Shown here: positions 19,348 through 47,120 of the stretch, in pieces
Layout of the letters: each line of letters starts with the position of its first letter
How positions within the stretch are numbered: the first letter of the stretch is position 1
DNA from: a virus
Taxonomy: Duplodnaviria; Caudoviricetes
Direction: 5' to 3' (one strand)
Virus record (IMG/VR): IMGVR_UViG_3300044695_005922
Coordinates: 41 to 64,040 of that record
Length of the DNA: 64,000 nt
Notes under the pieces: model-generated
Databases searched by the model: none
What the model was told of the DNA's origin: nothing
What the model saw: the letters and a program-made list of their open reading frames with translations, nothing else
Position numbers and translations under genes: made by a program

Positions 19348-19540
19348 CACTGGATGTTGGTATTCCATACTTCAAGAAAATAATATGTTTCACATAAGTG
19401 TTGGTAAAGGTGATTTCGTAATATACGAAGGTTTTGAAAATCCACCAAGCATAGAATTTTTAGATAATAATATATTATTATTGGAACAAGAGTTATATAA
19501 TAGATTTCCAGTAGGTTCAAAAATAGATATTATTGCATAA
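19313..19540 (+). CDS. Hypothetical protein
   Basis: Fills the gap before the terminator. Confidence 0.4.
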   Translation: MTHYGKKKGTTNTGCWYSILQENNMFHISVGKGDFVIYEGFENPPSIEFLDNNILLLEQELYNRFPVGSKIDIIA

Positions 19541-19574
19541 CCCACTTGACTTTGAGTGGGTTTTTTGTTATATT
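19539..19574 (+). terminator. Composite intrinsic terminator and sigma70-like promoter
   Basis: AACCCACT/AGTGGGTT stem plus T-run; TTGACT (19546) N17 TATATT (19569). Confidence 0.7.
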
Positions 19575-19955: not shown

Positions 19956-20172
19956 ATCAGAAAAAGAACTTAACTTGAAGTTCACAGGTAAAATGAGTAT
20001 CCTTATTGAGTTGGAAGGACATGGACCACTTGAATTTCGAGTAAATGATTTACAAGTGGTAAAGGATGCTGTACAAGTTATACTAGACCACACAAATAAT
20101 AAAACGCCCGTAAACTCTTACGATAAACGTGAACAGAAAACGATGCAGAAACTCTTGGATGGTATCGAATAA
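19935..20172 (+). CDS. Hypothetical protein (likely start MPKKK)
   Basis: 3' part of ORF 19804..20172; start uncertain. Confidence 0.4.
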
Positions 20173-20186
20173 AAGTTAATTATCAT

Positions 20187-20196
20187 ACTATTTATA
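20187..20196 (+). promoter_or_regulatory. Recurrent ACTATTTATA motif (candidate late promoter)
   Basis: Same motif at 29370, 49587, 53390 and, with one mismatch, 58227. Confidence 0.55.
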
Positions 20197-20306
20197 TATG
20201 TGAGGATTGTTCACGGCTCTCTTCACATATATAACAAAATTACCCCTACGAGTAAGCCCCATGCACCGTGAATGCGTGGGTATCTGAAAGTAGGGGTTTT
20301 GTTTTT
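20192..20306 (+). ncRNA. Structured leader RNA with a 7-bp kissing-loop interaction
   Basis: 15-bp hairpin whose loop contains TTCACGG; second domain with terminal loop CCGTGAA (exact complement); AGTA/GAA internal loop. Confidence 0.6.
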
Positions 20307-20317
20307 GGAGAAGTAGT

Positions 20318-20968
20318 ATGGAAAATAGATTTTATGTATACGCACATTACATTCCGGGTGAGGACAAACCATTTTATATTGGAAAAGGAACCGGTAGAAG
20401 AGCATATCATTTATATGACAGGAGTAAATTTTGGAAATCCGTAGTAAAAAAACATGGATATGAAATAAAAATATTATATGAAAATCTTACTCACGATGAA
20501 GCATTTGTTAAAGAAACAGAATTGATAACATTGTATGGAAGAAGGGATTTGAAAACTGGTTGTTTAGTTAATCAAACAAACGGTGGTGATGGTGTTCGTG
20601 GGCATTCTTTGGAAACCCGTGAGAAAATAGGAAAAATGTTTATTGGTAAACATTTAAGTGAAGGACATAAGAAAAAAATAAGTAATGCAAACAGAGGAAG
20701 AATCGTGTCTGACGAAGCCCGTGAAAAAATAAGAAATGCTTTTATAGGTAAATCACGACCACCCGAAGTAATTGATAAGATGAAAAAGTCCTTGACAGGA
20801 AGGGGTGGGAAGATTATATTACAATATGATTTACAAGATAACTTTATAAAAGAATATAATACAATAAAACAGGCGGCTATAGAAAATGGATTCTGTTACA
20901 GAACTATCAGACGAGTCCTCAAAGGACAACTACGACAAACCCGTGGATACATCTTCAAATACAAATAA
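20318..20968 (+). CDS. GIY-YIG homing endonuclease with NUMOD3/NUMOD1 domains
   Basis: FYVYAH..PFYIGKG..R, LVNQTNGGDG, HSLETREKI, ILQYDL..FIKEY..GYIFKY. Confidence 0.85.
   Translation: MENRFYVYAHYIPGEDKPFYIGKGTGRRAYHLYDRSKFWKSVVKKHGYEIKILYENLTHDEAFVKETELITLYGRRDLKTGCLVNQTNGGDGVRGHSLETREKIGKMFIGKHLSEGHKKKISNANRGRIVSDEAREKIRNAFIGKSRPPEVIDKMKKSLTGRGGKIILQYDLQDNFIKEYNTIKQAAIENGFCYRTIRRVLKGQLRQTRGYIFKYK
20792..20820 (+). promoter_or_regulatory. sigma70-like promoter inside the endonuclease gene
   Basis: TTGACA-N17-TATATT, about 65 nt before ATG 20886. Confidence 0.6.
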
Positions 20969-21872
20969 GCGTATATCGTATTCACAATATTCTGTGTGGG
21001 CGACTTGTGGGTGGAAATGGAAACTTCAATATGTAGATAAAATTAAATTTGATGATAATACAATAAATCTCATTTTTGGAACTGCCATGCACGAAGTAAT
21101 CCAAGAGTGGCTGGAACAATATCATTACGCGGGTAAGGACAATCTTGCAAAGAGTGTGGACCTCAGTGAACCTCTCAAAACAAAGTTCATTACATTGTTC
21201 CAAGAAAACACTACGGTTGATGCAAACGGGAATAAAGTATTCTTGTGTGATAAGAAAACCCTAATGGAGTTTTACAATCAAGGGTGTGAGATTCTGTCGT
21301 ATGTACAACAACATCGTAATAAGATTTTCCCGTCAAAAGACACCGTACTTGCGGGTATTGAATATCCTATTGAAACGGAAGTTCGTCCTGGTGTGACCTT
21401 TATTGGGTATGTGGATATCATTACCAAGAATGAAAAGACGGGCAAGGTTACAATTATTGATTTGAAAACCTCACGGTCTGGATGGACGCAGGCACAGAAG
21501 AGTGACCATATTAAACTGAATCAGATTTTGTTGTACAAGAAGTTCATCTCTGAGAAGTTTAATACTCCGTTGGAAATGATTGGGACGGAATTTATTATCT
21601 TGAAGCGGACGATTAGTGAGAACAGTCCATATCCCATTCCTCGTGTGAGTACCTTCGAACCGTCTAACGGAAAACCTTCGGTTAACCGTGCATGGGGACA
21701 TATTGAAAAGTTCTTGAATGAGTGTTTTGATGGTGAAGGAAACTATCGTACGGATTTGATTACCGCGACACCAAGTAAAGATAGTTGTAAGTATTGTGTG
21801 TATAACGATAAGGAAACGTATTGTTCTGAATCATTTTACAAAATCAAAAAGGTGAAGGTTGTCAATGGCTGA
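20886..21872 (+). CDS. PD-(D/E)XK RecB/Cas4-like exonuclease
   Basis: ISYSQ..C, FGTAMHE, GYVD..IIDLKT, QILLY, CKYC..C. Confidence 0.85.
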   Translation: MDSVTELSDESSKDNYDKPVDTSSNTNKRISYSQYSVWATCGWKWKLQYVDKIKFDDNTINLIFGTAMHEVIQEWLEQYHYAGKDNLAKSVDLSEPLKTKFITLFQENTTVDANGNKVFLCDKKTLMEFYNQGCEILSYVQQHRNKIFPSKDTVLAGIEYPIETEVRPGVTFIGYVDIITKNEKTGKVTIIDLKTSRSGWTQAQKSDHIKLNQILLYKKFISEKFNTPLEMIGTEFIILKRTISENSPYPIPRVSTFEPSNGKPSVNRAWGHIEKFLNECFDGEGNYRTDLITATPSKDSCKYCVYNDKETYCSESFYKIKKVKVVNG

Positions 21873-22820: not shown

Positions 22821-22856
22821 ACCCCACTTGACAACGGTGGGGTTTTGTATTATATT
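22821..22856 (+). terminator. Composite intrinsic terminator and sigma70-like promoter
   Basis: ACCCCAC-TTGACAACG-GTGGGGT then T-run; TTGACA N17 TATATT. Confidence 0.72.
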
Positions 22857-28689: not shown

Positions 28690-29367
28690 ATGATTTTACT
28701 ATTAGGTGATATTCACGGTGATTATAAAGTATTAGAGCGTGCGGCTAAATTGGCAGAAGAGGTTGGTGCTGCGGCTGTGATACAAGTCGGTGATTTTGGA
28801 TTGTTCCGTGGATATGGAATGTCCAATGAAATTCCATTTGTGAAAGTCGCAAAGGAAAGTGCGGTACCAATTTATTTCATCGACGGAAATCATGACGATT
28901 GTGACCGATGGTTGGAGTACACAGAAGTTACAGAAGTACTCACCGGGGCCAATCTATTCTATGTTCCCCGTGGTACTGTAATGGAACTTGATGGACGAAC
29001 TATTGCGTTCATGGGTGGTGCTGCCTCGATTGATAAAGCATGGAGATTGCAGAGTGGTGCTCACTGGACAGAAAAAGAAAACATCAGCCCACAGGAAATC
29101 TTGAAGGTATTGGATAATGCACAAGGTAAAACAATTGATTTGTTCATCACACATTGTCCCCCACACTCGGTCATTGAGGAAAACTTTGACCCACGAAATA
29201 AACTGTGGTTTGAAGTTGGTTTGGATTGGACCGACCCCAACCAATTAGTTATTGAAGAACTGTGGCATAAGTTGGGTACTCCTATGGTGTATTCCGGACA
29301 CATGCACCGTCGTGTACAGGGAATGACGTATAGAATTTTAGATATAAATGAACTTTTGGCCGTTTGA
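28690..29367 (+). CDS. Calcineurin-like metallophosphoesterase
   Basis: GDIHG, VGDFG, DGNHD, THCPP, GHMH. Confidence 0.9.
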   Translation: MILLLGDIHGDYKVLERAAKLAEEVGAAAVIQVGDFGLFRGYGMSNEIPFVKVAKESAVPIYFIDGNHDDCDRWLEYTEVTEVLTGANLFYVPRGTVMELDGRTIAFMGGAASIDKAWRLQSGAHWTEKENISPQEILKVLDNAQGKTIDLFITHCPPHSVIEENFDPRNKLWFEVGLDWTDPNQLVIEELWHKLGTPMVYSGHMHRRVQGMTYRILDINELLAV

Positions 29368-29369
29368 CC

Positions 29370-29379
29370 ACTATTTATA
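29370..29379 (+). promoter_or_regulatory. ACTATTTATA motif (candidate late promoter)
   Basis: Exact copy about 24 nt before ATG 29403. Confidence 0.55.
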
Positions 29380-29402
29380 GAAGGTTATAGAAAAGGTCAA
29401 AC

Positions 29403-29567
29403 ATGAGAAAAGATAAATATTCATATACTACCGTGCAAATTACGAAAGAAATAAATCAACACATTCGTGAGTTTTGTAAACTCAACGGGTTTGTTGCAAG
29501 CACCATTACAGAAAAGTTATGGTCTAATTTTATTTCTTCTAGTATGTCCGGTAGTATTACTTTATAA
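29403..29567 (+). CDS. 54-aa ribbon-helix-helix-like protein (not in ORF track)
   Basis: YTTVQITKEINQHIREFCKLNG..TITEKL. Confidence 0.5.
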   Translation: MRKDKYSYTTVQITKEINQHIREFCKLNGFVASTITEKLWSNFISSSMSGSITL

Positions 29568-30683: not shown

Positions 30684-32084
30684 ATGAAACACGGTTATAT
30701 TCCAAAAGAACAACGTAAGAAGATTTTATTCCTCTCAGACGATATGCGAGTAACATCAGGTGTTGGTGTTATGTCTCGTGAAATAATTGAGGGAACTTCG
30801 CATAGATTTAATTGGGTACAGGTAGGTGCAGCGGTTTCTCATCCTGAGGCCGGTAAAATGATTGATATGTCCGACGCAATTAATAATGAAGTCGGATTGA
30901 CTGACGCTAGTGTTAAGATTGTTCCCTACAATGGATACGGTGACAGTAGATTGATTCGTCAGTTAATAGAATTAGAAACGCCAGATGCTATTCTCCATTT
31001 CACAGACCCAAGATATTGGATTTGGTTATATCAGATTGAGCATGAGATTCGTCAAAAGATTCCTATGTTCTTCTACGCTATTTGGGATGACCTTCCGTAT
31101 CCATTCTATAATGAAAATTATTATCGTTCCGATGATTGGATTGGATGTATTAGTAAACAAACCTACAATATCGTAAAGCACGTATCAAGAAAGGAACCAC
31201 GTGCTCCGTGGTCACTATCCTACATTCCACATGGAATTGATACAAAGAAGTTCCATCCACTACCAGAAGATGACAAAGAACTCTTGGAAGTTCGTGAACG
31301 ATTGTTTAACGGTCAAGACGTTAAATATGTAGTGTTCTACAATAGTAGAAATATTCGTAGAAAGATGACATCGGATATTCTGTTGGCATTTAACACGTTT
31401 ATGAAAAAGCTACCAGAAGAAGAACGTTCAAAGTGCCGTCTTGTATTACACACACAACCCGTTGATGAACACGGTACTGACTTACCTGTGGTGATTCGTG
31501 ACGTAATGCCAGAATTAGAAAAGTATGTTATTTTCTCAAACGAACGCATTGAATCGAAGCATATCAACATTCTGTATAACATCGCAGACGTTACCATTAA
31601 TATGTCTAGTAATGAAGGTTTTGGTTTGGGTACGTGTGAAAGTCTAGTTGCTGGTACACCAATCATTGTTAATGTCACGGGTGGATTGCAAGACCAGTGT
31701 GGATTCACAAATGATGAAGGTGAATACCTTGACCCTGAACGTGATTTCAATTATGATTGGGGTAGTAATCACGATGGACGTTTCAAGAATCACGGTGAAT
31801 GGGCATTCCCATTATTTCCAGTAAGTCGTTCTTTACAAGGTTCTCCGTTGACCCCGTACATTTTTGATGACCGTTGTTCGTGGGAAGAAGCAGCGGAGAA
31901 GATAATGGAAGTGTATAAGATGTCGCGTGAGGAACGTAAACGCCGTGGTGAGTTGGGTCGTCAATACGCACTTGGAGCTGGACAATTTACGGCAGAACGT
32001 ATGTGTGAATTATTTATCGAACATATGGAAAATGCGTGGGATAATTGGACCCCACGGGAACGTTTTACTTTGGTGAAGGCATAA
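30684..32084 (+). CDS. GT-B (GT4-like) glycosyltransferase
   Basis: YIPHGID, NSRNIRRK, LYNIADV..SSNEGFGL..ESL..GTPII. Confidence 0.88.
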   Translation: MKHGYIPKEQRKKILFLSDDMRVTSGVGVMSREIIEGTSHRFNWVQVGAAVSHPEAGKMIDMSDAINNEVGLTDASVKIVPYNGYGDSRLIRQLIELETPDAILHFTDPRYWIWLYQIEHEIRQKIPMFFYAIWDDLPYPFYNENYYRSDDWIGCISKQTYNIVKHVSRKEPRAPWSLSYIPHGIDTKKFHPLPEDDKELLEVRERLFNGQDVKYVVFYNSRNIRRKMTSDILLAFNTFMKKLPEEERSKCRLVLHTQPVDEHGTDLPVVIRDVMPELEKYVIFSNERIESKHINILYNIADVTINMSSNEGFGLGTCESLVAGTPIIVNVTGGLQDQCGFTNDEGEYLDPERDFNYDWGSNHDGRFKNHGEWAFPLFPVSRSLQGSPLTPYIFDDRCSWEEAAEKIMEVYKMSREERKRRGELGRQYALGAGQFTAERMCELFIEHMENAWDNWTPRERFTLVKA

Positions 32085-32085
32085 T

Positions 32086-33393
32086 ATGACAGGCAAACCG
32101 TTATGTATAGTTAGAGCACCATGCCAGACTCGTTCTGGTTATGGTGATATGAGTAGAGACATTATCCGTCACATCATTGAATGGGATAAGTTTGATGTGA
32201 AGGTGCATAGTGTACCGTGGGGTGATACTCCTATGAATGCACTGGATGAAACTAATCCAAAGGACAAAATGATTTTGGATAGAATCATTCGTGGTGGACA
32301 ATTACCACAACCGTCATTGTATGTTACCATTACGATTCCAACAGAATTTGAACCGTTAGGAAAGTACAATATCGGTATAACCGCCGGCATTGAAACCACC
32401 GTGGCTTCTGCTGAATGGATACAAGCATGTAATAAAATGGATTTAGTACTAACTATTTCCGAACACTCAAAGAATGTTTTTCATTTCTCAAAGTACTCAC
32501 AGCAAGATCAACAAGGTAATATCATTGGTGAACTAGCAGTCACCAAACCAATTGAAGTATTACACAATTGTATTGATAATAACATATTTAAGAAAATTGA
32601 ATATGATTTTAATTTAGAGCCAAAAATACGAGAAACATTGGATAGCATTCCAGAGAAATTCTGTTATCTTTTCGTTGGTCACTGGCTCCGTGGTGAATTT
32701 GGAGAGGACCGTAAGAATGTTGCACTGTTGGTGAAAATATTCCTTGAAACATTCCGACAAGTTCCAGAAAAAGAAAAGCCTGCGCTTATTTTAAAAACTA
32801 GTAGTGCTGGATTTTCTATCTTGGACAGAGAAGATATATTAAAGAAAATCGAACAAATCAAGAAATCTGTTACTTTGAACGCTGGACAGAGCATGCCGAA
32901 TATTTATTTATTGCATGGTGAGTTAACAGACAAAGAAATGAATTCGTTATATAACCACTCAAAGGTAAAAGCACACGTAAGCTTAACCAAGGGTGAAGGA
33001 TTTGGTAGACCATTACTCGAAGCATCAATTAGTGGTAAACCCGTAATCGCATCTGGATGGAGTGGTCAACTTGATTTCTTGGATAAAGACAATTCATTAC
33101 TAATTGGTGGTGAACTCAAACCTATCCACGAAAGTTCTGTGTGGGACGGTGTATTGATTCGGGAGTCTACGTGGTTCGCTCCTGATATGAACCAGTCAGC
33201 AAACGCAATGTACGCCGTATTTAAGAATTACAGTAATTTTAAAAAGAAGGCACAGTTGTTAGCAAAACAAAATGTTAAGAAGTTCTCGTATCAAACTATT
33301 TTTAACAGAACAGTTGAGTTGTTAGACAAATATGTTCCACAATTTTCCGTTGAAACTAAATTGGTTCTTCCAACATTAAAGAAAATTAACTAA
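32086..33393 (+). CDS. GT-B (GT4-like) glycosyltransferase
   Basis: SGYG, RKNV, TKGEGFGRPLLEA..GKPVIASGWSG. Confidence 0.88.
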   Translation: MTGKPLCIVRAPCQTRSGYGDMSRDIIRHIIEWDKFDVKVHSVPWGDTPMNALDETNPKDKMILDRIIRGGQLPQPSLYVTITIPTEFEPLGKYNIGITAGIETTVASAEWIQACNKMDLVLTISEHSKNVFHFSKYSQQDQQGNIIGELAVTKPIEVLHNCIDNNIFKKIEYDFNLEPKIRETLDSIPEKFCYLFVGHWLRGEFGEDRKNVALLVKIFLETFRQVPEKEKPALILKTSSAGFSILDREDILKKIEQIKKSVTLNAGQSMPNIYLLHGELTDKEMNSLYNHSKVKAHVSLTKGEGFGRPLLEASISGKPVIASGWSGQLDFLDKDNSLLIGGELKPIHESSVWDGVLIRESTWFAPDMNQSANAMYAVFKNYSNFKKKAQLLAKQNVKKFSYQTIFNRTVELLDKYVPQFSVETKLVLPTLKKIN

Positions 33394-33776
33394 TGGCAAT
33401 AGAAGGGTATAAAGGTACATTAGGTGTTCGTACTTTCGTTTCTCGAAAAGATTTGACTACTGGCAAAGTGGTGCAGTTTACCTATGATAATGAGCAGAAA
33501 TATGCACTCGTACTCAATCCCAATTGGGAAGGTAAAATGCACGCTTTGTCACTGGGTTCTTTAACACCAGAAAAACTTGGTCAAATATTTAAATTGATTG
33601 GTGATGAAACTGATACTCAGGTAATTTACGACCGTTTCAAAAACTCAAATTTCGTTGGTGACAGACCCTATCGAACCTATTTATTAACGAAGATATCTAC
33701 GTTACGTGAAGTATTCATTAAGAAAACTGTGTTAAAGACAGAAGAAAACGTAACGGAGAATATGTATGGGGAATAA
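33393..33776 (+). CDS. Hypothetical protein
   Basis: TAATG overlap, 127 aa. Confidence 0.55.
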   Translation: MAIEGYKGTLGVRTFVSRKDLTTGKVVQFTYDNEQKYALVLNPNWEGKMHALSLGSLTPEKLGQIFKLIGDETDTQVIYDRFKNSNFVGDRPYRTYLLTKISTLREVFIKKTVLKTEENVTENMYGE

Positions 33777-33936
33777 TGTTATAACAGAACACCCATTAAC
33801 CGAATTGAAACACGATAGAATAAACTTAAAAAGATATATACCAGAAAAAGAATGGTGGACTGTTTGGTACTACATCTGTACTGGTAAACACGTAGCAGTA
33901 GCAAAAGAATAAAACTAATACAATAGGAAGGGTTAC

Positions 33937-34956
33937 ATGACAGAAGAAGGTAACGTTAGTAAAAAACCACTGAGCACAGCGGATAAAGTCGCTGTGGTAC
34001 TCGGTGGTTGTGGTTTTATAGGCCACCACCTCGCACGACGATTACAGAAGGAAGGTTACTGGGTTCGTGTGGCAGATATTAAACTTCCAGAACATTGTGA
34101 TGTAAACACATTTGCAGACGATGTTGTACACGGAGATTTATCGGATTATCAAACATGCTTGAACGCATTAAGTTTGGGTCGTACCGATGTCGAAGTATAT
34201 CAATTAGCTGCTGATATGGGTGGGGCATCATACATCTTTACTGGTGAGCATGACGCAAATGTAATGACCAACTCGGCGTTAATCAATTTAAATACATTGA
34301 AAGCAATGGTGACGTTGGGATTAAAACGAGTATTCTATTCGTCATCGGCGTGTATCTATCCAGAGCATAACCAGTTAGACCCAGATAATCCAAACTGTGA
34401 AGAAAGTTCAGCATATCCAGCAAACCCAGATAGTGAATATGGATGGGAAAAATTATTCAGTGAACGATTGTACATGTCGTACAAGCGTAACTTCGGCATA
34501 GAACCACGCATTGCTCGTTTCCATAATGTATATGGTGTAGAAGGGACATGGGAAGGTGGTCGTGAAAAGGCACCTGCTGCGATGTGCAGAAAGATTGCTC
34601 AGACACCAGAAGGTGGTTCAATTGATATGTTTGGTGACGGAAAGCAAACCCGTTCATTCCTTTATGTAGATGAATGTGTCGAAGGTATCTTACGGCTAAC
34701 CCATTCAGATTTTACTGGTCCTGTTAATATCGGTTCGGAAGAAATGATTTCAATTAACGATTTTGCTTATATGATTATGGGCATCGCTGGTAAGAAGTTA
34801 ACTATTAATCACGTTCCAGGTCCGTTAGGGGTTCGTGGACGTTCCTCCGACAATCGGTTGATTCGTCAACACCTCAATTGGGAGCCAAATTCTCCATTGG
34901 TTGACGGCATTACCAAAACATATCACTGGATTAACGAACAGGTTACCTCTATATGA
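33937..34956 (+). CDS. GDP-mannose 3,5-epimerase-like SDR
   Basis: GGCGFIG, QLAADMGG, YSSSACIYP, YGWEK, RFHNVYG.EGTWEGGREKAPAAMCRK. Confidence 0.88.
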   Translation: MTEEGNVSKKPLSTADKVAVVLGGCGFIGHHLARRLQKEGYWVRVADIKLPEHCDVNTFADDVVHGDLSDYQTCLNALSLGRTDVEVYQLAADMGGASYIFTGEHDANVMTNSALINLNTLKAMVTLGLKRVFYSSSACIYPEHNQLDPDNPNCEESSAYPANPDSEYGWEKLFSERLYMSYKRNFGIEPRIARFHNVYGVEGTWEGGREKAPAAMCRKIAQTPEGGSIDMFGDGKQTRSFLYVDECVEGILRLTHSDFTGPVNIGSEEMISINDFAYMIMGIAGKKLTINHVPGPLGVRGRSSDNRLIRQHLNWEPNSPLVDGITKTYHWINEQVTSI

Positions 34957-35789
34957 TTACGCATGTCGGTATAGGAAACTCTGGGAGATTTGGTAACCAA
35001 ATGTTTCAAATGGCTGCACTCATTGGTATCGCAGAAAAGAACGGATATGATGTAAAAATTCCAATAGAAAATACTGGTGATAACTTCGTATTTTATGATT
35101 TAGCAAAGCAGCAAGCAGAACCAACTGGTATGGAACTTCGTAGACCATTTCTTATTCCCGACAGTTACTTTGCACCAATGGCAGAAATTTCAGATGTTGT
35201 CAAGCAACGATACCAAGAACAATTCTTTCATTTTAATGGTGCAGCATTAGATATTCCAGACAATATTGATATTGCTGGGTTCTTTCAAAGTGAAAAGTAT
35301 TTCAAACATGCAGAACAAAAAGTCCGTGAAGTATTTACCTTCCGTCCAGAAATTCGACAGCAAGCTGAATTAGAACTGGCAAAGGTAAAGGATGATGCAC
35401 CACGAGTATCTATCCACGTTCGTCGTGGAGATTACGTGGCAAACTCTGCAAACCATACGGTCACTGGAATGGAATACTATGCGGAGGCTATCAACAAGTT
35501 CTTCTCGAAAGAACCTTATCGGTTTGTAGTATTCTCCGATGATCCAGAATGGTGTAAGGAAATGTTCGAAGGTGGGTATATTGTAGATATCAATAACTCA
35601 TATGTAGAAATGTGTATGATGAGTATGTGTGACCATCACATCATTGCAAATAGTTCGTTTAGTTGGTGGGGAGCATGGTTAAATCCAAACCCCAAGAAGA
35701 TTGTAACCGCACCGTCACAGTGGTTCGGACCAAACCTTCGTCATAACAGTATTATAGACCTTCTACCAAGTGAGTGGTTTTGGATATGA
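34953..35789 (+). CDS. GT11 alpha-1,2-fucosyltransferase-like protein
   Basis: GRFGNQMFQ, GFFQSEKYF, HVRRGDY, VFSDD, IIANSSFSWWGAWL. Confidence 0.92.
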   Translation: MITHVGIGNSGRFGNQMFQMAALIGIAEKNGYDVKIPIENTGDNFVFYDLAKQQAEPTGMELRRPFLIPDSYFAPMAEISDVVKQRYQEQFFHFNGAALDIPDNIDIAGFFQSEKYFKHAEQKVREVFTFRPEIRQQAELELAKVKDDAPRVSIHVRRGDYVANSANHTVTGMEYYAEAINKFFSKEPYRFVVFSDDPEWCKEMFEGGYIVDINNSYVEMCMMSMCDHHIIANSSFSWWGAWLNPNPKKIVTAPSQWFGPNLRHNSIIDLLPSEWFWI

Positions 35790-36385
35790 GATTAAAAGAA
35801 TTTTACTACCAGATGGAAGATATTCCTGACATTGGTTTGTCTGACAAAGGAGATAGACATCCATTACATAAGCATTTTTATATTGATGCTTATGATGCAT
35901 TATTCTCTGCATGGAAAGATGAACCTGTTCAATTGATGGAATTGGGTATTGCATCTGGTGCAAGTCTGTTGATGTGGTCGCAGTATTTTACAAAGGGTAT
36001 AATTACCGGACTTGATATTGTAGAACCTGTACGAAAGGATTATCTTTCAACGTTACCTAATGTTAATATGATATTTGGTGACGCATATGATGAAGATAAT
36101 GGTAACTATCTAGTACAGAACTTACCGAAGCAAGATGTGTTTATTGAAGATGGTGCACATGATATTGATAACCAAGTCAAAGCAATATTAAAATACCACG
36201 CACTTGTAAAACCAGGTGGATATTATATCTGTGAGGATATGTACTTACCAAATCTATTTGATTATTTAACTCGTGGTGTATATATGATACCCGACCGTAA
36301 CTATGCAGTAACCATACTAGATCAACACATGCGTCCGAACGGACTCGCAGATGATGTGATGATTATAATACAGTTCTTTAATTAA
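35786..36385 (+). CDS. Class I SAM-dependent (sugar O-)methyltransferase
   Basis: SDK..H.Y..Y, LMELGIASGAS, GLDI, IEDGAH, GGYYICED. Confidence 0.8.
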   Translation: MRLKEFYYQMEDIPDIGLSDKGDRHPLHKHFYIDAYDALFSAWKDEPVQLMELGIASGASLLMWSQYFTKGIITGLDIVEPVRKDYLSTLPNVNMIFGDAYDEDNGNYLVQNLPKQDVFIEDGAHDIDNQVKAILKYHALVKPGGYYICEDMYLPNLFDYLTRGVYMIPDRNYAVTILDQHMRPNGLADDVMIIIQFFN

Positions 36386-36386
36386 T

Positions 36387-37157
36387 ATGAAAATAGCACT
36401 TTGTTTATCTGGCCAACCTCGTGGATTGCCTTTGTCATTAAAAATGTTAAAGGCAAACCTCGTTGGTATAGAAGATATGGATATCTTCTTACACGCATGG
36501 TTTGACCCAAATACTATTGGTCAACCATACGATAGTGCGCAAGCACATCAACAAGGTAGAGTAGGATTGGTTCATCCACAAACGGAAGAGATGTTACTCA
36601 GTCTTAATCCAAAAGATTATATCTTTGAACCACAGAAGGAATTTCCATTCGCACGTAGGTTCACATCACCACCAGAAGCAAATCAAGAACGTATGGCTAG
36701 TATCTTCTATTCAATCTATACAGCGAATATGTTGAAGAAGCGATACGAACTGTTAAATGGATTTGAATATGATTTGGTGATTCGTGCAAGATATGATTTG
36801 TGGTACGAGAATCCTATCAATGTAATGGATTATTTGGAACAATCACGAACACATATCGTCACCGCAGATAAGTTTCAGGGGATTCGTAATGACCCAAACT
36901 TTCATCAAGGTGGATATACGATGACGGATATATTCGCATTCTCCACATCAAAGAATATGGATGTGTTCTGTGACACCTATCCACACTTTTCCTTTATCCA
37001 TTCACAGATTCAGATTCCCTATGGTGAAAACTATATCGGATATCGTGTACGAGTAATGGGTGGAATCGAAGCATACTGTGCTCCGTTCAACTACGAAATC
37101 ATGCATCGTGTAGTAAATATCAACAATATAGAAGAATTGGAAAAGCAGTACGCATGA
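36387..37157 (+). CDS. Putative glycosyltransferase (KIALCLSGQPR type)
   Basis: KIALCLSGQPR, DIFLHAW, YDLVIRARYD. Confidence 0.65.
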   Translation: MKIALCLSGQPRGLPLSLKMLKANLVGIEDMDIFLHAWFDPNTIGQPYDSAQAHQQGRVGLVHPQTEEMLLSLNPKDYIFEPQKEFPFARRFTSPPEANQERMASIFYSIYTANMLKKRYELLNGFEYDLVIRARYDLWYENPINVMDYLEQSRTHIVTADKFQGIRNDPNFHQGGYTMTDIFAFSTSKNMDVFCDTYPHFSFIHSQIQIPYGENYIGYRVRVMGGIEAYCAPFNYEIMHRVVNINNIEELEKQYA

Positions 37158-37936
37158 AGATAGGAGTATGTTTATCTGGACATTATAGAAATTTTGATTA
37201 TAATTACGATTCTTGGGATAAATTATTATTCTCAAAACACGATTGTGATGTATTTTTACATACGTGGGATGTGATGGGAAATCGTAAAAAATCAGATGAT
37301 GTACACGTTGTAGAGAACCTAGACAAATTAATACATACAGAAACAGAGTTAAAACAAAAATATAATCTTACCGATGTAGTAATACAACCTTACGAAGAAC
37401 CACTACAAGAATTTTTAGATAAAAGTAAGAGAGTTAGAAAACTACGAAACGAGGCAGGTGTATCACAAAACAGTATAGATTGGACAACTCGACGAGTAAC
37501 TCATCTATACTCTATGTGGTACAAAGCATTAAAGTGTTTTGAGTTATTAGAGTCACACAGTACAGATTATGATTTGGTAATAAAATGTAGACCAGATATT
37601 AAATTAAAAGACAGTTTTAATTTAGACGATATAGATTTGGAATGTATTAATTGGCCGTGGTATAACTCAACAAAAGAACACTACTCAGAACCACACGATT
37701 ACTATGCTGTGGGTAATTTTGATAATATGAAAGTATACAATAACTTGTATAATCATATAGAAGAGATGGAATCTGTATTAGAACTAGAAAAACCAACACG
37801 TTCAGCAGGGAATAACGTAGAGATACCAGGTGTAGATAGGTTTTTGAATCCACATACATTATTATTTTTTTACGTAAAACATATGGGACTACCATACAAT
37901 ACAGTAATAAATCATTTAGAATTGACGCGAGGATAG
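37154..37936 (+). CDS. Putative glycosyltransferase, paralog of the previous gene
   Basis: KIGVCLSGHYR, DVFLHTW, YDLVIKCRPD. Confidence 0.65.
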   Translation: MKIGVCLSGHYRNFDYNYDSWDKLLFSKHDCDVFLHTWDVMGNRKKSDDVHVVENLDKLIHTETELKQKYNLTDVVIQPYEEPLQEFLDKSKRVRKLRNEAGVSQNSIDWTTRRVTHLYSMWYKALKCFELLESHSTDYDLVIKCRPDIKLKDSFNLDDIDLECINWPWYNSTKEHYSEPHDYYAVGNFDNMKVYNNLYNHIEEMESVLELEKPTRSAGNNVEIPGVDRFLNPHTLLFFYVKHMGLPYNTVINHLELTRG

Positions 37937-37937
37937 G

Positions 37938-38807
37938 ATGAGAACAGATTTTACACCAGATAACGTTGAACTTTGGATTTCCAACTGGCGCCGAAAGGAA
38001 TTGATGGATGGATTCGCACGTGAATGGTTAAATACATTTGATTTCGAACGAGTTAACATCATCACCAATCATTCATCAGTCACCATTGATGACTTCGCAG
38101 ATGATATTAAACCTCGTGTTAAGATTTGGAATAATGTGATGAGACACGATTACGCAATCGGTCCTATGGTTGAAAACTACAATCAAGCATATGTTCACAC
38201 TTTTCTTTCCGGTAAAAAATATTGTATAACTGCTCACGACAATATGATTATTAAGGATGGGTGGGTTGACATTATCAAGCAAACCGATTATGATTTATAT
38301 ATGGCCCCACAAGGTGACCAAGTTACCTTAATGACATTGGAAGGATTACGATTTTTCGGATGGTGGGATGAACGGTACGCTACAAACGGAAACCACGAAT
38401 TGGATTTCAGTACACGAGCGTTACGTAGAGATTTGGGACACAACAGAGCATCGTTGATTGATTATCACGCATGGCATAACTGGCCCGAACAAATAAACGT
38501 AGAGGGTCAGATAGTTAGTCCAATATGTAGAAAGGGACATTTAGAATATGGAGATGGATTCCCATATCTTAGGTGGAATGATGTAGGGTTGGATAAATAC
38601 TGGACACGAGCAAGTAAGCATGTAGTTCCACAATGCGGAGCAAAAACACAAAAGTTTGAGAAGCTGACTTGGAATGATAGAAAGTGGCGAGGACAGTCAC
38701 CAAACACGTTTGAAAACTTCGTAAACGGGCCGACCGAAGAAGAAATTGATTGGTATCCGTGGTTAGACATAAATTCATTAGACTTCGACATTTGTAAAAT
38801 CGTATAA
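37938..38807 (+). CDS. GT-A fold glycosyltransferase-like protein
   Basis: AHDN, GWWDERY..ELDF. Confidence 0.55.
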   Translation: MRTDFTPDNVELWISNWRRKELMDGFAREWLNTFDFERVNIITNHSSVTIDDFADDIKPRVKIWNNVMRHDYAIGPMVENYNQAYVHTFLSGKKYCITAHDNMIIKDGWVDIIKQTDYDLYMAPQGDQVTLMTLEGLRFFGWWDERYATNGNHELDFSTRALRRDLGHNRASLIDYHAWHNWPEQINVEGQIVSPICRKGHLEYGDGFPYLRWNDVGLDKYWTRASKHVVPQCGAKTQKFEKLTWNDRKWRGQSPNTFENFVNGPTEEEIDWYPWLDINSLDFDICKIV

Positions 38808-38819
38808 GGGGAAAGGTAA

Positions 38820-39455
38820 ATGTTATCAGAAAAAATTAAAATAGTACTGGAAGATATCCGTAACGGTAAACCAATCATCGTCGTAGATAGTTACGATAGA
38901 GAAAATGAAGGTGATTTGATGATTGCCGCCGAAAAAGCAACACCAGAAACACTGGCTTTTATTGCACGCGAAGCCCGTGGAATTATGTGTATTCCTACAC
39001 CAAAGTTTATGTTAGACCGTTTGGAAATTCCAATGAGTCCATCTAACAATAACGATAAGTTCTCGACTCCATTCACCGTCAGTATTGACGCACGTGATGG
39101 TGTCACTACGGGTGTAAGTGTGGAAGATCGTATGGTCACGATTGGATTGGTATTAGATGAAAACACCAAACCAGAACAACTCGCATACCCAGGTCACTTG
39201 TTCCCACTTCGCCCTCGTCCTGGTTTGTTGAAGGAACGGCAAGGTCATACCGAAGCATCTGTTCAACTTGCTATGATGGCTGGAACGAAACCAGTTGCAA
39301 TCATTTGTGAGATTATGAATAATGATGGTAGTATGGCACGAGTTCCAGACCTCGTTCCTTACGCAGAACGATGGGCATTGAATACGATTTCTATTGATGA
39401 AGTCATCGAATACTGTAATGAAATTGGTTGGGAACCACCAATTCAAGTTGGATGA
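38820..39455 (+). CDS. ribB: 3,4-dihydroxy-2-butanone 4-phosphate synthase
   Basis: DRENEGDL, FTVSIDA..TTGVS..DR, PGHLFPL, RQGHTEASV, ICEIMN.DGSMAR. Confidence 0.95.
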   Translation: MLSEKIKIVLEDIRNGKPIIVVDSYDRENEGDLMIAAEKATPETLAFIAREARGIMCIPTPKFMLDRLEIPMSPSNNNDKFSTPFTVSIDARDGVTTGVSVEDRMVTIGLVLDENTKPEQLAYPGHLFPLRPRPGLLKERQGHTEASVQLAMMAGTKPVAIICEIMNNDGSMARVPDLVPYAERWALNTISIDEVIEYCNEIGWEPPIQVG

Positions 39456-39458
39456 TTT

Positions 39459-40445
39459 ATGGAAAAGTTGGTCACACGAGCATACAATAGATTTGAAATA
39501 GATGAAACGCGAGGGGTTGTTCGGAAATTAAGTTCCACCGAACGACTTCGTGATGAGATATTATATTATGTAAAATTACAAAAGTATCATCCATCACAAG
39601 CAGTATTTTTTCCAAGATTACTCGATCACGTAGAACCGTTGATAGCAGACTTTTGGATGGATTTAGAATTGTATAGTTATCCAAACGTTGGTAATTATTT
39701 GTTTGGTGACAAAATTATGCCGTCGTGGTCTGAATTTTTCCTTAATTTACGAAACATCCTTGTGTCGTGGTCTAATATTAGTCCACGAGTTAAGTGGACC
39801 GACGAAGAAATTCGTGACGCGGCGTACGATATGTACATCACAAAAACAGAACGTGAGTATGGTAATTTTTATTCTGGATGGCACGATAAGTTTGATTCGT
39901 TATTTATTGACCAAGTTCGCACACATTCAGTATACATTAACAATAAACAATACTCCATGTTCGAAGTAATCTGGCCACAAATTAAGAATTACATCGAACA
40001 AAATATGTTAACTTTTACTCCATCACTTATACACGGTGATTGTTGTTTCAGTAACATTTTATATGGTGAGGATAAAAATATTATTCGTTTCATAGATCCT
40101 CGTGGTTCATTTGGTAAACTTGGAAATTACGGTGATATTCGATACGATATAGCCAAACTGTATCATTCATTAGACGGAACGTATGAAGCATTCATTACTG
40201 ATAAGTTTAAGGTTACAGCGAATGGGAATGCCTATCAATTGGACATTAAGGATGACGGTGAACTTGATTGGGCATTGAATGAGTTTGAATATATTTTCTT
40301 TCCAATGTTTAATAAGAAGGAAATAAAAATTATCCAAGGATGTATCTTTATTGGAATGTGTGCTCGTCATTATGATAGTCTGGAAAGACAACGAGCAATG
40401 TACCTCACAGGTATAAGATTATTAAACGAGGCATTGGAATTATGA
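39459..40445 (+). CDS. APH/choline-kinase-fold phosphotransferase of capsule loci
   Basis: TRAYN, IHGDCCFSNIL, FIDPRG, GDIRYDIAKLYHS. Confidence 0.8.
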   Translation: MEKLVTRAYNRFEIDETRGVVRKLSSTERLRDEILYYVKLQKYHPSQAVFFPRLLDHVEPLIADFWMDLELYSYPNVGNYLFGDKIMPSWSEFFLNLRNILVSWSNISPRVKWTDEEIRDAAYDMYITKTEREYGNFYSGWHDKFDSLFIDQVRTHSVYINNKQYSMFEVIWPQIKNYIEQNMLTFTPSLIHGDCCFSNILYGEDKNIIRFIDPRGSFGKLGNYGDIRYDIAKLYHSLDGTYEAFITDKFKVTANGNAYQLDIKDDGELDWALNEFEYIFFPMFNKKEIKIIQGCIFIGMCARHYDSLERQRAMYLTGIRLLNEALEL

Positions 40446-41212
40446 ACGTCTTAGTGTTAATGGCTGGTAGGGGTCAGCGTTTTGTAAACGAAGGATACAA
40501 AGACCCAAAACCATTAATTCAAATAAATGGTAAGACAATCTTACAATGGACAACAGAATCATGTCCATATATTCGTCACGATGGAAAGGGACAGTCGAGT
40601 AACATTCATTTATATTTTGCAGTCTTGCAAGAACATTTGGATGCTGGGTTGGATAAATTTTTATATTCCATTTACGGTCGTAACATAGAAATCATTCCGT
40701 TTAAAGAAATTACTTCGGGAAGTTTGGACACCGCAAGACAAGCAGCATCTCGTATGTGGCACAAAACTGATGACTTATTGGTTCTTGATTCCGATAACAA
40801 ATATAATCATAATGGTGTTGATGATTTTATTCGTGGTATTAAATTTAAGAGTAATGCAGTCGCGGTAGCATGTTTCGATAATCCAGACAAATCATTACCC
40901 AATAAATGGTCAAACGTTATAATTGAAGATGGAAAGGCTGTGGGTATTCGTGAAAAGGATGATTCGTGGGTTCACCACCCAACAATGATTGGAATATTTT
41001 ATTTCAGTCAAACACAATTCTTCACGGAATATGCAAAGTTTATTATGGAATTTAACAAACCAGTTGAATTTAATGGTAACGCAGAGTATTATATGAGTAT
41101 GGTGGCCTCGTATAATGTGAGTGTCGGAGTTCCAGTATACGTACATACCGTTACTGATGTGGTACCTCTTGGTACACCAGCGGACGTAAAAGCCTTTGAG
41201 GGTACATTATGA
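40442..41212 (+). CDS. Sugar-phosphate nucleotidyltransferase
   Basis: LMAGRGQRF..GY..PKPLI, EK, EYY, LGTP. Confidence 0.85.
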   Translation: MNVLVLMAGRGQRFVNEGYKDPKPLIQINGKTILQWTTESCPYIRHDGKGQSSNIHLYFAVLQEHLDAGLDKFLYSIYGRNIEIIPFKEITSGSLDTARQAASRMWHKTDDLLVLDSDNKYNHNGVDDFIRGIKFKSNAVAVACFDNPDKSLPNKWSNVIIEDGKAVGIREKDDSWVHHPTMIGIFYFSQTQFFTEYAKFIMEFNKPVEFNGNAEYYMSMVASYNVSVGVPVYVHTVTDVVPLGTPADVKAFEGTL

Positions 41213-41589
41213 TATTTGCATTTGACCTGGACAATACTATCTGTGAAAATAAAACGGGTGACATGACATACGCAGATGTCAAACCATTTCCAGAAGCATT
41301 AGAAACATTACGATGGTTGAGAGAAGAAGGGCACACCATTATTCTTCATACCGCACGACATATGAAAACTGGTGGTGGTAATCAAGGAAAAGTATTAAAG
41401 TTACAAGGTAAAGTATTATTTGATTGGTTGGAAAAGTGGGATATACCATACGATGAATTGTGGTGGAGTAAACCTCACGCCGATTTAATAATAGATGATG
41501 CAGTACATAGACATACAGATTGGGAAACCTCAATCTTAGCAATAAAAGATAGAATAAACAAAGGACCAAGAACCGTGGAGAATCCATAA
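41209..41589 (+). CDS. HAD phosphatase, EcbF/BcbF capsule-biosynthesis type
   Basis: FDLDNTI..YADVKP..HTAR.M..WL..IPYDEL..KP..IDD. Confidence 0.85.
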   Translation: MIFAFDLDNTICENKTGDMTYADVKPFPEALETLRWLREEGHTIILHTARHMKTGGGNQGKVLKLQGKVLFDWLEKWDIPYDELWWSKPHADLIIDDAVHRHTDWETSILAIKDRINKGPRTVENP

Positions 41590-42470
41590 TGTCACAACCA
41601 ACATTCTTTTTTGACACAGCAGACACCGACTATATCCGTAAGATTTGGGACAAGTTGGGTAAATATATTGACGGTAGTTCCGTCATCGGAATCACTACCA
41701 ATCCAAACGCATTGGCAAAGGTCAACTGCGATACATTGGATAAGTTTGAAACACTTGTTCCACAAATGACCTCACTTGTTAAGGAACTTCGTGGTGATGG
41801 TCCGGACGGATTGGTATACGTCCAAGTCCCAAATTCAGTTATGGAAGAAGAAGATATTATTCGGTGGGCACAATACGTTGACCAGTTCAACGGTAATGGT
41901 GCAGCTATGGCATTGAAGATTCCACATTTCAGTTATGTACTTCGAATCACCGACGCACCAGAACTCCGTAAGTTATATCTAAATGTAACAGGTGTTTCTG
42001 ATGCAAATACCATCATTAAATCGTTGAGTTATCAAAGTGTATTCTTCGCTAGTATCATTCCAGGACGTATGGAAGAAGTTGGCATTGATGCAGATGCACA
42101 TTTGGAATATTTGGCAAACCAACAAATCCAACGTCATCAAAATATCATCGCTGGTAGTATGAGAACAATTGATGGATTAAAGAAATCTATTTACTATCAC
42201 ACCGTACCAACAATCGGTAGTCGTGTTTGGGATTTAATTGATGCAGAAAATCGTTGGGAGGAATTTGCTTCATACTGGAATTATACATATTCGGTGGTTG
42301 ACTTCCCACAAGCAGATTATACTCCATTGGTAACTGACAAGAATCTTGATTTGAGTAAGCAGTTCTTCAATCAAATGGACCAGTTGGGTCAATCACTACA
42401 CGAAGAATTCATGAGTACCAAGTCGGCAGAATCATTGGGTGATTTTGCAAAGATACAATTTACTACTTAA
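41589..42470 (+). CDS. Transaldolase/fructose-6-phosphate aldolase family protein
   Basis: FFDTAD, GITTNP, LKIP (Schiff-base Lys), NVT, PGRM, AGSMR. Confidence 0.75.
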   Translation: MSQPTFFFDTADTDYIRKIWDKLGKYIDGSSVIGITTNPNALAKVNCDTLDKFETLVPQMTSLVKELRGDGPDGLVYVQVPNSVMEEEDIIRWAQYVDQFNGNGAAMALKIPHFSYVLRITDAPELRKLYLNVTGVSDANTIIKSLSYQSVFFASIIPGRMEEVGIDADAHLEYLANQQIQRHQNIIAGSMRTIDGLKKSIYYHTVPTIGSRVWDLIDAENRWEEFASYWNYTYSVVDFPQADYTPLVTDKNLDLSKQFFNQMDQLGQSLHEEFMSTKSAESLGDFAKIQFTT

Positions 42471-42486
42471 ACAGTTGCTTGATTAA

Positions 42487-43218
42487 ATGAATATTATTAT
42501 TCCAATGGCTGGTGAGGGGACTCGTGTAAAAAGCACGGTCCCCAAACCACTAGTAGAAGTATTACCAGGTAAAGTTATGATTGAAATGGCATTGGAATCG
42601 TTGAACATAGATGGCCATTATTGTTTTATTGTTCGTAGATACAACAATCAAGATTGGAATGTGGCTCTTCGTGATGCGATTCGTAAAACCGTTGGTCAGG
42701 CTGTTGTAGTAGAAATTGATTACCTTACCGATGGTCCAGCCATTTCAGCGTTACATGCTCCACAATTATTTTTTGGAGAAACTGATTTATTAGTTACCAA
42801 CTGTGACCAAATCATGCATTGGGACGCCGATAAGTTTATTGAGTTTACCAAAACCACCGATGCTGTTGGTGCAGTGGTGACCTACGAAACTAACACGCCT
42901 AAAAATAGTTACGCGTTGGTGGCTAGTGTAGAACACAAATATCCAAAATTCACAATGGTAAAGGAAAAGGAAGTGATTAGTAACTATTCACTGAATGGTA
43001 TTCACTGGTGGAAGTATGGCAAAGATTTCGCATCTTCGGTACATACTATGAAACAAGTGAAAGACACTGTTAATGGTGAATATTATATTGGTCCCTCATA
43101 CAACTATCTGGACGGAACTAAACGAGTATACGATATAACTCCGTCCGAACACTATGCAGTAGGAACCTTGGAAGATATTGAACGATACAGAGCATTATAT
43201 GGAAATAAAAAGAATTGA
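42487..43218 (+). CDS. Sugar-phosphate nucleotidyltransferase, second copy
   Basis: IIPMAGEGTR..PKPL, TDGPA, NCDQ, KEK, NGEYYIGPSYN, VGT. Confidence 0.85.
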   Translation: MNIIIPMAGEGTRVKSTVPKPLVEVLPGKVMIEMALESLNIDGHYCFIVRRYNNQDWNVALRDAIRKTVGQAVVVEIDYLTDGPAISALHAPQLFFGETDLLVTNCDQIMHWDADKFIEFTKTTDAVGAVVTYETNTPKNSYALVASVEHKYPKFTMVKEKEVISNYSLNGIHWWKYGKDFASSVHTMKQVKDTVNGEYYIGPSYNYLDGTKRVYDITPSEHYAVGTLEDIERYRALYGNKKN

Positions 43219-43531
43219 AGATATGACTCGTGGATGGTTTATTGGAAACTTTACGCCATCCGTATTGATGACCAGTGATTTTGAAGTCGGATATCTTCGT
43301 CATAAAAAAGGTGAAATCTGGGGTAAGCATTATCACAAGAGGGCTATAGAAATTAATTATTTAATTCGTGGCAAGATGCGAATACAAGGACAGCTATTGA
43401 CAACAGGAGATATATTTACTATATTTCCGTATGAAATAGCAGACCCAGAATTTTTAGAAGATTGTGAATTAATTGTTGTTAAATTACCGTCCGTCATAGG
43501 CGACAAATACGAGGTCACAGACAAACAATGA
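43199..43531 (+). CDS. Cupin
   Basis: RGWFIGNF.P..HYHK..E..G..VVKLPS..DKY. Confidence 0.75.
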   Translation: MEIKRIEDMTRGWFIGNFTPSVLMTSDFEVGYLRHKKGEIWGKHYHKRAIEINYLIRGKMRIQGQLLTTGDIFTIFPYEIADPEFLEDCELIVVKLPSVIGDKYEVTDKQ

Positions 43532-44757: not shown

Positions 44758-44766
44758 GAGAATACT

Positions 44767-47058: not shown

Positions 47059-47061
47059 TAC

Positions 47062-47090
47062 TTGACGTAGAGCAGTCACGATGTTATACT
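47062..47090 (+). promoter_or_regulatory. sigma70-like promoter
   Basis: TTGACG-N17-TATACT. Confidence 0.6.
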
Positions 47091-47120
47091 TATTAATGAA
47101 CCTTTAACAATTACTTTACA

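Follow-up and report, generated by a model that had tools for sequence, protein, structure and literature searches.

One account of T-even phages (PMC2988022) describes how homing-endonuclease genes are held in check: a late promoter lies inside a hairpin that hides the ribosome-binding site, terminators limit nuclease transcripts, and the promoters of the downstream host gene are embedded in the nuclease open reading frame (ORF). In the leaders covered there (I-TevI, I-TevII, I-TevIII, segB, Aeh1 mobE and seg43(25)), the late promoter stands directly before a free-standing or intron-borne endonuclease ORF, and because it lies within the pairing, the initiation region is hidden solely on transcripts from upstream promoters (PMC2988022). 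The very stable hairpin of seg43(25) ends just short of the ribosome-binding site and does not cover it (PMC2988022). As presented there, these leaders are simple hairpins of a few tens of bases without a conserved tertiary contact. Here we describe an RNA element at positions 20187-20317, + strand, of a 64,000-nucleotide (nt) stretch of viral DNA (Duplodnaviria; Caudoviricetes), referred to throughout as the window (positions 41 to 64,040 of IMG/VR record IMGVR_UViG_3300044695_005922). Its predicted signals resemble those of the T-even leaders, and it differs in placing a 110-nt multi-helix fold, with a kissing helix and a sarcin-ricin-like loop, between the predicted promoter and the ribosome-binding site. 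The fold is conserved across different nucleases and insertion sites, and the predicted promoter box, read on this strand, departs from the T4 late consensus.

We conclude that the element belongs to a real, conserved, pseudoknotted RNA family that lies outside Rfam and occurs in lake-water phages. The fold, its covariation, the boundaries of the cassette that carries it and its strict linkage to endonuclease ORFs are observed. As to function, we put the chances at about even that the element acts in cis to control expression, as the 5' leader of a homing-endonuclease cassette that is mobile and free-standing. Leaders that regulate phage endonuclease genes are known as a kind; the architecture of this one is new.

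A preliminary description, made from the letters of the window, had picked out the hairpins, stems, loops, T-rich tract and ribosome-binding site of the element, and every one of them is present where it placed them. The features are as follows.

20187-20317, + strand: the element as a whole, followed by an ATG at 20318
20184-20193, + strand: 5' strand of helix P0, CATACTATTT, overlapping the box and present only on transcripts arriving from upstream
20187-20196, + strand: ACTATTTATA box, a predicted late-promoter-like motif
20192-20234, + strand: hairpin 1 (P1), 15 bp in the window, made up of 7 core pairs and 8 A/U pairs
20200-20206 with 20220-20226, + strand: P1 core, 7 bp, conserved, with a 13-nt loop, from fold and covariation
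20210-20216, + strand: L1 kissing segment TTCACGG, within the loop of hairpin 1, from covariation
20227-20241, + strand: A-rich linker (J1/2) between P1 and P2
20242-20297, + strand: domain 2, comprising P2, the internal loop, P3 and L3
20242-20249 with 20290-20297, + strand: P2 outer stem, ACCCCTAC with GTAGGGGT
20250-20254 opposite 20286-20289, + strand: internal loop, GAGTA opposite GAAA (GAGUA/GAAA as RNA)
20258-20265 with 20273-20280, + strand: P3 inner stem, CCCATGCA with TGCGTGGG, including one G-U pair
20266-20272, + strand: L3 terminal loop CCGTGAA, 7 nt, the exact complement of L1 TTCACGG
20298-20306, + strand: U-rich (T-rich) tract directly 3' of the G+C-rich P2, with the look of a terminator tail
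20307-20320, + strand: translation initiation region, with GGAG at 20307-20310, a spacer and the ATG at 20318
20311-20320, + strand: 3' strand of P0, complementary to 20184-20193 and including the start codon

Read as RNA, the + strand folds at -53 kcal/mol, compared with -30.5 +/- 3.6 kcal/mol for 200 shuffled sequences, none of which equals it (z -6.3), and this minimum-free-energy fold contains P0. The - strand folds more weakly (-42.9 kcal/mol). The preliminary description had called for a search against known RNA families; none accounts for the element. Rfam 15 gave no covariance-model match at gathering scores across the whole window, and a search of 20100-20400 extended to E 10 returned noise (seven matches at E 2.1-9.7, scoring 11-16.5 bits where the cut-offs are 37-106). 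Searches of open full text yielded no description of the RNA; their coverage leaves aside supplements and subscription journals and so does not prove its absence from the literature.

Related leaders were collected by pattern scans keyed solely on P2 and the internal loop, by a covariance model (R1) built from six leaders, and through the downstream proteins (individual loci are labelled L plus a number). From about 45 loci with matches, 16 distinct leaders were retained after identical copies were dropped, all from lake and marine viral or metagenome contigs, and were aligned to this model (alignment A3). The pattern scan of viral contigs returned 13 loci (11 real, two chance), that of metagenome contigs 19 (15 real, four chance), and a second pattern applied to viral contigs 12, none of them a chance match. 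Across 185,579 species, each represented by one genome, there was a single locus, a chance match, and no family member. The covariance model matches the window once, and the whole record of the window also once. It found 11 matches in the best 80 of 435 viral loci encoding related nucleases, and none in 80 bacterial or archaeal loci encoding related nucleases. A structure-aware scan of all 235 loci plus the window recovered the same 16 cores and one unrelated coding match (L177), with no more divergent members among them. Seven pattern matches (L045, L048, L217, L219, L221, L233 and L236) were rejected as chance: five are unmatched by model R1, and L048 and L236 were judged by eye only. Two of these, L217 on a metagenome contig and L236 in a Trichormus genome bin, carry the same pattern-matching stretch, without an endonuclease ORF or U tract, and appear by eye to be unrelated to the family.

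The alignment shows compensatory evolution in every helix. With the loop-loop helix entered as a pseudoknot, 94.3% of 438 pair cells hold standard pairs, compared with 79.2 +/- 1.1% in 500 shuffles, all of which stay below the observed figure, and sliding the partners by 1-3 columns lowers pairing to 45-53%. Changes on both sides occur in 19 of the 29 pairs, and all four helices covary. The P1 core is 94.1% paired, with both-side changes at five of seven pairs; P2 is 100% paired; and P3 is 82.9% paired, with both-side changes at all seven pairs. Across the 14 rows alignable at this point, the kissing helix is paired throughout (14/14, 100%), with both-side changes at four of seven pairs. Its three central pairs change together (AU in 8 rows, CG in 5 and UA in 1; GC in 9 and AU in 5; CG in 7, AU in 5 and UA in 2). 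The two remaining leaders, L043 and L065, have their own unrelated complementary segments of 10 and 11 nt, and nine distinct complementary L1/L3 sequence pairs occur in the family. G-U pairs are frequent (e.g., nine rows at columns 25-50 and nine at columns 79-121), which identifies the + strand as the one that folds; together with the covariation they exclude a chance or DNA-level explanation.

Some of this conservation is to be read with the search in mind. The search patterns specified P2 and the internal loop, whose conservation is therefore partly ascertainment, and P1 and P3 were aligned by a model that includes them; the kissing helix is in neither the patterns nor the model. Nonetheless, L065 and L056, which were found via the protein route, show P2 covariation and the same internal loop. 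L001, a locus in another context with a 49%-identical endonuclease, carries the same architecture upstream, with different but again complementary segments. The preliminary description had proposed a tertiary-structured RNA and had named a lack of compensatory changes in the loop-loop pairing as the outcome that would tell against it. The covariation check found the opposite, and the loop-loop pairing covaries across the family.

The conserved RNA is about 106-120 nt long. It opens with the box TA[TC]TTAT[ATG], which stands 3-4 nt ahead of P1 in 16/16 leaders and is followed by three variable bases and an invariant G. P1 has 7-9 bp and a loop of about 13 nt. The linker behind it is A-rich, 9-16 nt long, and able to pair with the U tract in several members. 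P2 consists of 8 G+C-rich base pairs (four or five of them G-C) and encloses 41-43 nt: on the 5' side the invariant GAGUA and 1-2 further bases, then P3 (5-8 bp, highly variable in sequence with the pairing kept) around L3, and on the 3' side 3-5 variable bases and the invariant GAAA before P2 closes. L3 is 7 nt long in most members and wholly used by the kissing helix. In 15/16 leaders at least seven T fall within the 10 nt after P2, while L043 has three. GGAG follows, and the ATG lies 20-23 nt past P2 in 14/16 leaders. The internal loop is invariant in 16/16 leaders and accounts for the nine unpaired positions that are invariant outside the helices; the junction strands J1/2 and J3/2 vary freely in length and sequence. 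In L043 and L065 the 5' partner of L3 begins at the invariant G without a convincing hairpin around it, giving an H-type pseudoknot. The presumed first base of the RNA is thus paired in both fold forms, by P1 or by the pseudoknot helix.

Kissing complexes with fully complementary 7-nt loops are known from ColE1 RNA I/RNA II and HIV TAR/TAR*, and intermolecular loop pairing from the packaging RNA of phage phi29. As in those systems, all seven loop bases pair with the loop of another hairpin, and the sequences drift while complementarity is kept. The present family differs in that both loops lie on one transcript, the helix reaches 9-11 bp in some members, L043 and L065 form the H-type pseudoknot, and there is no packaging or copy-control context.

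In sarcin-ricin (bulged-G) loops, the partner strand of AGUA is GAA. The internal loop of the leaders resembles such a sarcin-ricin-like or loop E module by its sequence, with AGUA on the 5' side opposite GAA on the 3' side, flanked by G and A and adjoining a regular helix; it differs in having 1-2 extra 5' bases and 3-5 extra 3' bases before P3. The AGUA signature is given as typical of sarcin-ricin loops (PMC13085918).

The small ribozyme offered by the preliminary description, or a riboswitch, would make the element catalytic or ligand-sensing, for instance a new self-cleaving ribozyme that trims the nuclease mRNA. Both classes typically have compact pseudoknotted folds ahead of genes. In hammerhead ribozymes and purine riboswitches, three-way arrangements are found in which loop-loop pairing joins two arms, and the element together with P0 would form a three-way junction. 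Even so, we regard this reading as very improbable. The Rfam search to E 10, hammerhead models included, gave no match; the nine invariant unpaired positions form a known structural module, and J1/2 and J3/2 are free to vary. A hammerhead is a three-way junction with conserved core strands between stems I/II and II/III and a cleavage site before stem I; here P1 lies outside P2, which departs from that topology, and the strand between P1 and P2 is variable and A-rich. The conserved unpaired bases fall in the sarcin-ricin-like module and not in the junction, where a riboswitch pocket would be expected. With invariance limited to GAGUA/GAAA and an architecture unlike that of any small self-cleaving class compared with it, the ribozyme proposal finds no support.

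The leader is part of a larger insertion, whose features in the window are listed here.

~20174-20969, + strand: inserted homing-endonuclease cassette (leader and ORF), missing from close relatives
20318-20968, + strand: free-standing homing-endonuclease gene, 216 aa, with a GIY-YIG-type N-terminal domain and NUMOD3/NUMOD1 DNA-binding modules
20792-20820, + strand: predicted exit promoter, sigma-70-like TTGACA-17-TATATT, within the 3' end of the endonuclease ORF, scoring 11/12 and lying 66 nt before the ATG at 20886
20886-21872, + strand: PD-(D/E)XK nuclease gene, the host gene that adjoins the insertion, homologous to its relatives from residue 29 (~20970)

Thirty-nine related viral loci were gathered through the downstream PD-(D/E)XK nuclease. 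Three of them (L005, L006 and L027) have flanks 94-97% identical to the window and lack ~20174-20969. Neither the leader nor the endonuclease ORF was matched in any of the 39 loci. Because the two are jointly missing from L005, L006 and L027, leader and endonuclease gene constitute one inserted cassette. In these cassette-free relatives, and likewise in L004, the PD-(D/E)XK nuclease gene begins with an ATG that the stop of the upstream gene overlaps; the insertion has displaced this original start, and the ORF now opens at ATG 20886, inside the 3' end of the endonuclease, with about 28 added residues. Three DNA runs contain the stretch with the cassette, and no cassette-skipping joint was seen in them. 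L056 has an orthologous cassette flanked by orthologues of the two genes that flank it in the window; there the nuclease is 79% identical and the leader 75.7% identical to those of the window, with L1/L3, P2 and P3 compensated. L056 and L057 are on one 50,224-nt viral contig, which carries two leader-endonuclease cassettes of two structural subtypes about 11 kb apart.

By its sequence, the ORF downstream of the leader is a GIY-YIG homing endonuclease. Its N-terminus reads YVY-(10 aa)-YIGKG, and R28, E66 and N85 are invariant in six of six sequences. A profile of the six homologues matches a solved GIY-YIG domain protein (E 8e-4). Pfam gives NUMOD3 (E 4.7e-7), an I-HmuI NUMOD-like module (2.9e-6) and also NUMOD1, together with LEM-3 GIY-YIG at 0.0029; the Pfam GIY-YIG models all stay below their cut-offs.

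The preliminary description had the RNA travelling with the nuclease, and this holds: the two share one inserted cassette, and all 16 distinct leaders end about 20 nt ahead of a homing-endonuclease ORF. At least four N-terminal nuclease types are represented. Thirteen of the 16 leaders front YVY-type GIY-YIG ORFs, one of which is cut to 36 aa (on a contig of ~1x coverage). The others precede a canonical GIY-YIG nuclease (L230; PF01541, E 2.1e-8), a protein with an HNH-like motif recognised by eye, for which Pfam gives NUMOD3 only (L224), and a protein with a Cys-rich N-terminal region and NUMOD3 (L231). The L231 leader is 95.6% identical to that of the window, yet its protein is unrelated in the N-terminal part. 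In L046 a second YVY-type endonuclease ORF stands in tandem about 10 nt past the first (oriented ~12440 on), without a leader of its own. The leader is therefore a portable module of endonuclease cassettes, bound to no single enzyme, and this portability argues against a dedicated cofactor. The cofactor role that the preliminary description had listed is weakened accordingly: the same leader precedes at least four unrelated N-terminal types, and a nearly identical one a different protein.

HEARO and omega RNAs are structured RNAs associated with nucleases. The leaders share with them the genetic linkage of a conserved structured RNA to a mobile nuclease gene. They differ in that no segment is variable in the manner of a guide, the variable segments pairing with each other, and in that the RNA is a 5' leader and the nucleases are protein-guided GIY-YIG or HNH-type enzymes.

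The same set of proteins bears on whether the leader is a protein operator, in which the internal loop or the kissing complex would be bound by the nuclease (via the shared NUMOD3), by an RNA-binding protein of the host or by a late protein of the phage, so as to repress or time translation, as autogenous control. Sarcin-ricin loops are common protein-binding sites, and here the invariant GAGUA/GAAA loop adjoins a rigid helix at a fixed distance from the ribosome-binding site. NUMOD3 was found in four of the seven downstream proteins scanned with Pfam (those of the window, L224, L230 and L231) and was not matched in the other three (L055, L065 and L046). No RNA-binding domain was detected in the scanned proteins, and the catalytic domains differ among members while the RNA stays constant. 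The T-even account places the known autorepression of I-TevI at the DNA level (PMC2988022). We consider a protein operator rather improbable.

The best fit is the regulation of the nuclease, one of the roles named in the preliminary description; what we infer comprises an active promoter, a terminator, masking of the start codon and the use made of the tertiary contact. In such a scheme the leader would keep the nuclease gene insulated and weakly or late expressed. Transcription of the cassette would start at ACTATTTATA, probably at the invariant G 3-4 bases past the box, giving late transcripts whose first base is already paired. Domain 2 and the U tract would act as a terminator or attenuator that stops most transcripts, from upstream early promoters and from the box alike, so that only read-through RNA carries the endonuclease ORF. 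On transcripts derived from upstream, the 10 nt overlapping the box would form P0 with the spacer and AUG, masking the start codon, while box-initiated transcripts, without the 5' strand of P0, would be translatable. The exit promoter would restore the neighbouring gene's early expression. Together, the GAGUA/GAAA module and the kissing helix of L1 with L3 would lock P1 and the P2-P3 arm into one compact fold, which may make the long-range closure of P2 (and P0) fast and independent of the sequence at the landing site. By analogy, box, P0, terminator and exit promoter would reproduce piece by piece the T-even endonuclease controls set out in that source (PMC2988022).

The box is read as a late promoter, a prediction from its sequence and placement. 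Exact copies of ACTATTTATA occur at 20187, 29370, 49587 and 53390, all on the + strand and all intergenic; the three outside the leader lie 22-33 nt ahead of an ATG. The 9-nt core CTATTTATA has four matches on the + strand and none on the - strand, with about 0.3 per strand estimated by chance from base composition. With one mismatch allowed there are 11 matches against 10.3 by chance, i.e. no excess; one of the one-mismatch copies stands behind a strong terminator and ahead of a virion structural gene at 58262. Reverse-complemented, the 8-nt core of the box equals the T4 late-promoter consensus; in their + strand reading, all copies face genes. At 29362-29405 a box (29372) lies in an inverted repeat, TTTGACC...GGTCAAA, whose 3' arm abuts an ATG (fold z -2.8), resembling the T4-style placing of a late promoter within a start-masking hairpin; it counts in favour of start-codon masking, and the box of this repeat is kept in L005 and L008.

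P0 in the window is a duplex of 10 bp (-11.0 kcal/mol; p 0.01 with 300 shuffles), and P0-type pairing reaches p<0.05 in 5/16 leaders. The initiation region is mostly unpaired in box-initiated transcripts. Two further means of translational control were considered and rejected: a conserved masking of the ribosome-binding site in box-initiated transcripts, for which the pairing partners differ from member to member with no common mechanism, and a conserved anti-Shine-Dalgarno role of the 3' arm of P1, which is not pyrimidine-rich in L230.

A G+C-rich P2 followed at once by the U tract, in 15/16 leaders, is a feature of intrinsic terminators, and P2 plus U tract resemble the other predicted terminators of this phage save for the interior of 41-43 nt. 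Intrinsic terminators and attenuators share with the leader the 8-bp G+C-rich stem, the U run and, in several members, an upstream A-rich tract able to pair with it. The leader departs from them in its interior, which contains another helix, a structured internal loop and a loop whose partner lies elsewhere, and for the leader no alternative (antiterminator) pairing was found. A sigma-70-like promoter stands at the 3' end of the endonuclease ORF in 6/15 cassettes (window, L055, L056, L229, L051 and L230), with about 0.005 per locus estimated by chance; it overlaps the last codon and stop of the ORF in L055 and L051 and spans the stop in L229 and L230. An exit promoter is what a terminator-carrying cassette would need, and we therefore count it for the terminator reading. 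Elsewhere in the window, 19539-19574 and 22821-22856 are terminator-like hairpins whose stem-loop contains TTGAC(T/A) and which are followed by a T run and, after it, TATATT, giving a fusion of terminator and sigma-70-like promoter; they resemble the "promoter-early stem-loop" cassettes of T4-type phages.

Several observations weigh against a cis-acting control leader. The box lies upstream of the proposed terminator, so that the cassette's own transcripts would be curbed too; a simple insulator has the opposite order. L043 is without a U tract. Intrinsic terminators usually have a loop of 3-8 nt; the "loop" of this terminator hairpin is 41-43 nt, neither short nor simple, and a consensus terminator scan did not call it. 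P0-type pairing is not significant in 11/16 leaders, and a comparison of long and short transcripts shows no consistent unmasking (0.35 and 0.36 in the window). One lake metatranscriptome run gave three small contigs, all inside the downstream gene between 21071 and 21391, with the leader uncovered; it is uninformative on transcription, and no transcript ends were seen. Finally, a covarying kissing helix of 7-11 bp and an invariant loop are unneeded, as a plain hairpin would terminate and protect the 5' end. The most conserved features are thus the least explained, because expression control of this sort requires neither.

The same anatomy suits a small RNA that is stable and independent, measures about 106 nt from the box to the terminator at the U tract, and acts in trans, with the nuclease translated from rare read-through. 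Such an RNA could be a protein decoy or sponge, an anti-defence RNA, or a former of L1-L3 intermolecular dimers or rings, riding with the nuclease gene as its cargo or partner. A promoter-like box, a flush-paired 5' end, a pseudoknotted fold and a G+C-rich stem with a U tail are the anatomy of stable bacterial small RNAs; the tertiary features are constrained more than a simple attenuator needs, and covariation cannot separate intramolecular from intermolecular loop-loop pairing. Set against this, a nuclease ORF lies about 20 nt downstream in 16/16 cases and no leader was found without one, 14/16 keep the ATG at a distance of 20-23 nt, no second target site for L1 or L3 recurs in any of the loci, and L043 has no U tract. 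A repeat of CCGTGAA at 20719, in the nuclease ORF of the window, was considered as such a target and rejected as chance, since the other 13 alignable leaders repeat nothing nearby. On balance we hold a trans-acting small RNA to be unlikely.

A broader possibility, to which we give little credence, is a functional non-coding RNA that the cassettes need or exploit, either a stable, nuclease-resistant RNA that forms rings or dimers by L1-L3 pairing from molecule to molecule, in the manner of phi29 packaging RNA, or one that binds RNA polymerase or a host or phage protein via the sarcin-ricin-like loop. In its protein-binding variant, such an RNA may serve late read-through of its own terminator or may neutralise a host factor. 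Protein-guided homing endonucleases would then have an RNA partner of a new class.

The window covers nearly all of a record of 64,040 nt that is estimated to be ~30% complete. It has 38.7% G+C, and 87 of the 93 greedy ORF calls are on the + strand. The closest named relatives, Microcystis phage Mel-JY01 and Flavobacterium phage immuto, are distant (37% identity in the neighbouring nuclease). A blastn search of phage GenBank records found no relative of the region, the sole match being 53 nt inside the ORF, to a Yersinia phage. A part of the window at 30684-48164 looks like a sugar-modification region, where PHROG matches point to glycosyltransferases (30684-32084 and 32086-33393) and nucleotide-sugar epimerases (33937-34956 and 47121-48164).

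For a free-standing homing endonuclease, expression has to be just high enough for spread without harm to its carrier phage, and the solutions known from T-even phages are simple hairpins and promoter placement. Here a portable 110-nt tertiary-structured module, outside Rfam, accompanies at least four nuclease types at several insertion sites and shows compensatory evolution. As a clean natural case of a long covarying kissing helix beside a sarcin-ricin-like loop, the family suits structural study. If the RNA does more than control expression, whether as antiterminator, protein decoy or stable RNA, homing endonucleases would have an RNA partner of a new kind. Should the RNA be a regulator, it would be a compact, context-independent expression-control part carried by selfish genes, one that would inform how mobile nuclease genes domesticate themselves and could serve as a part for synthetic biology.

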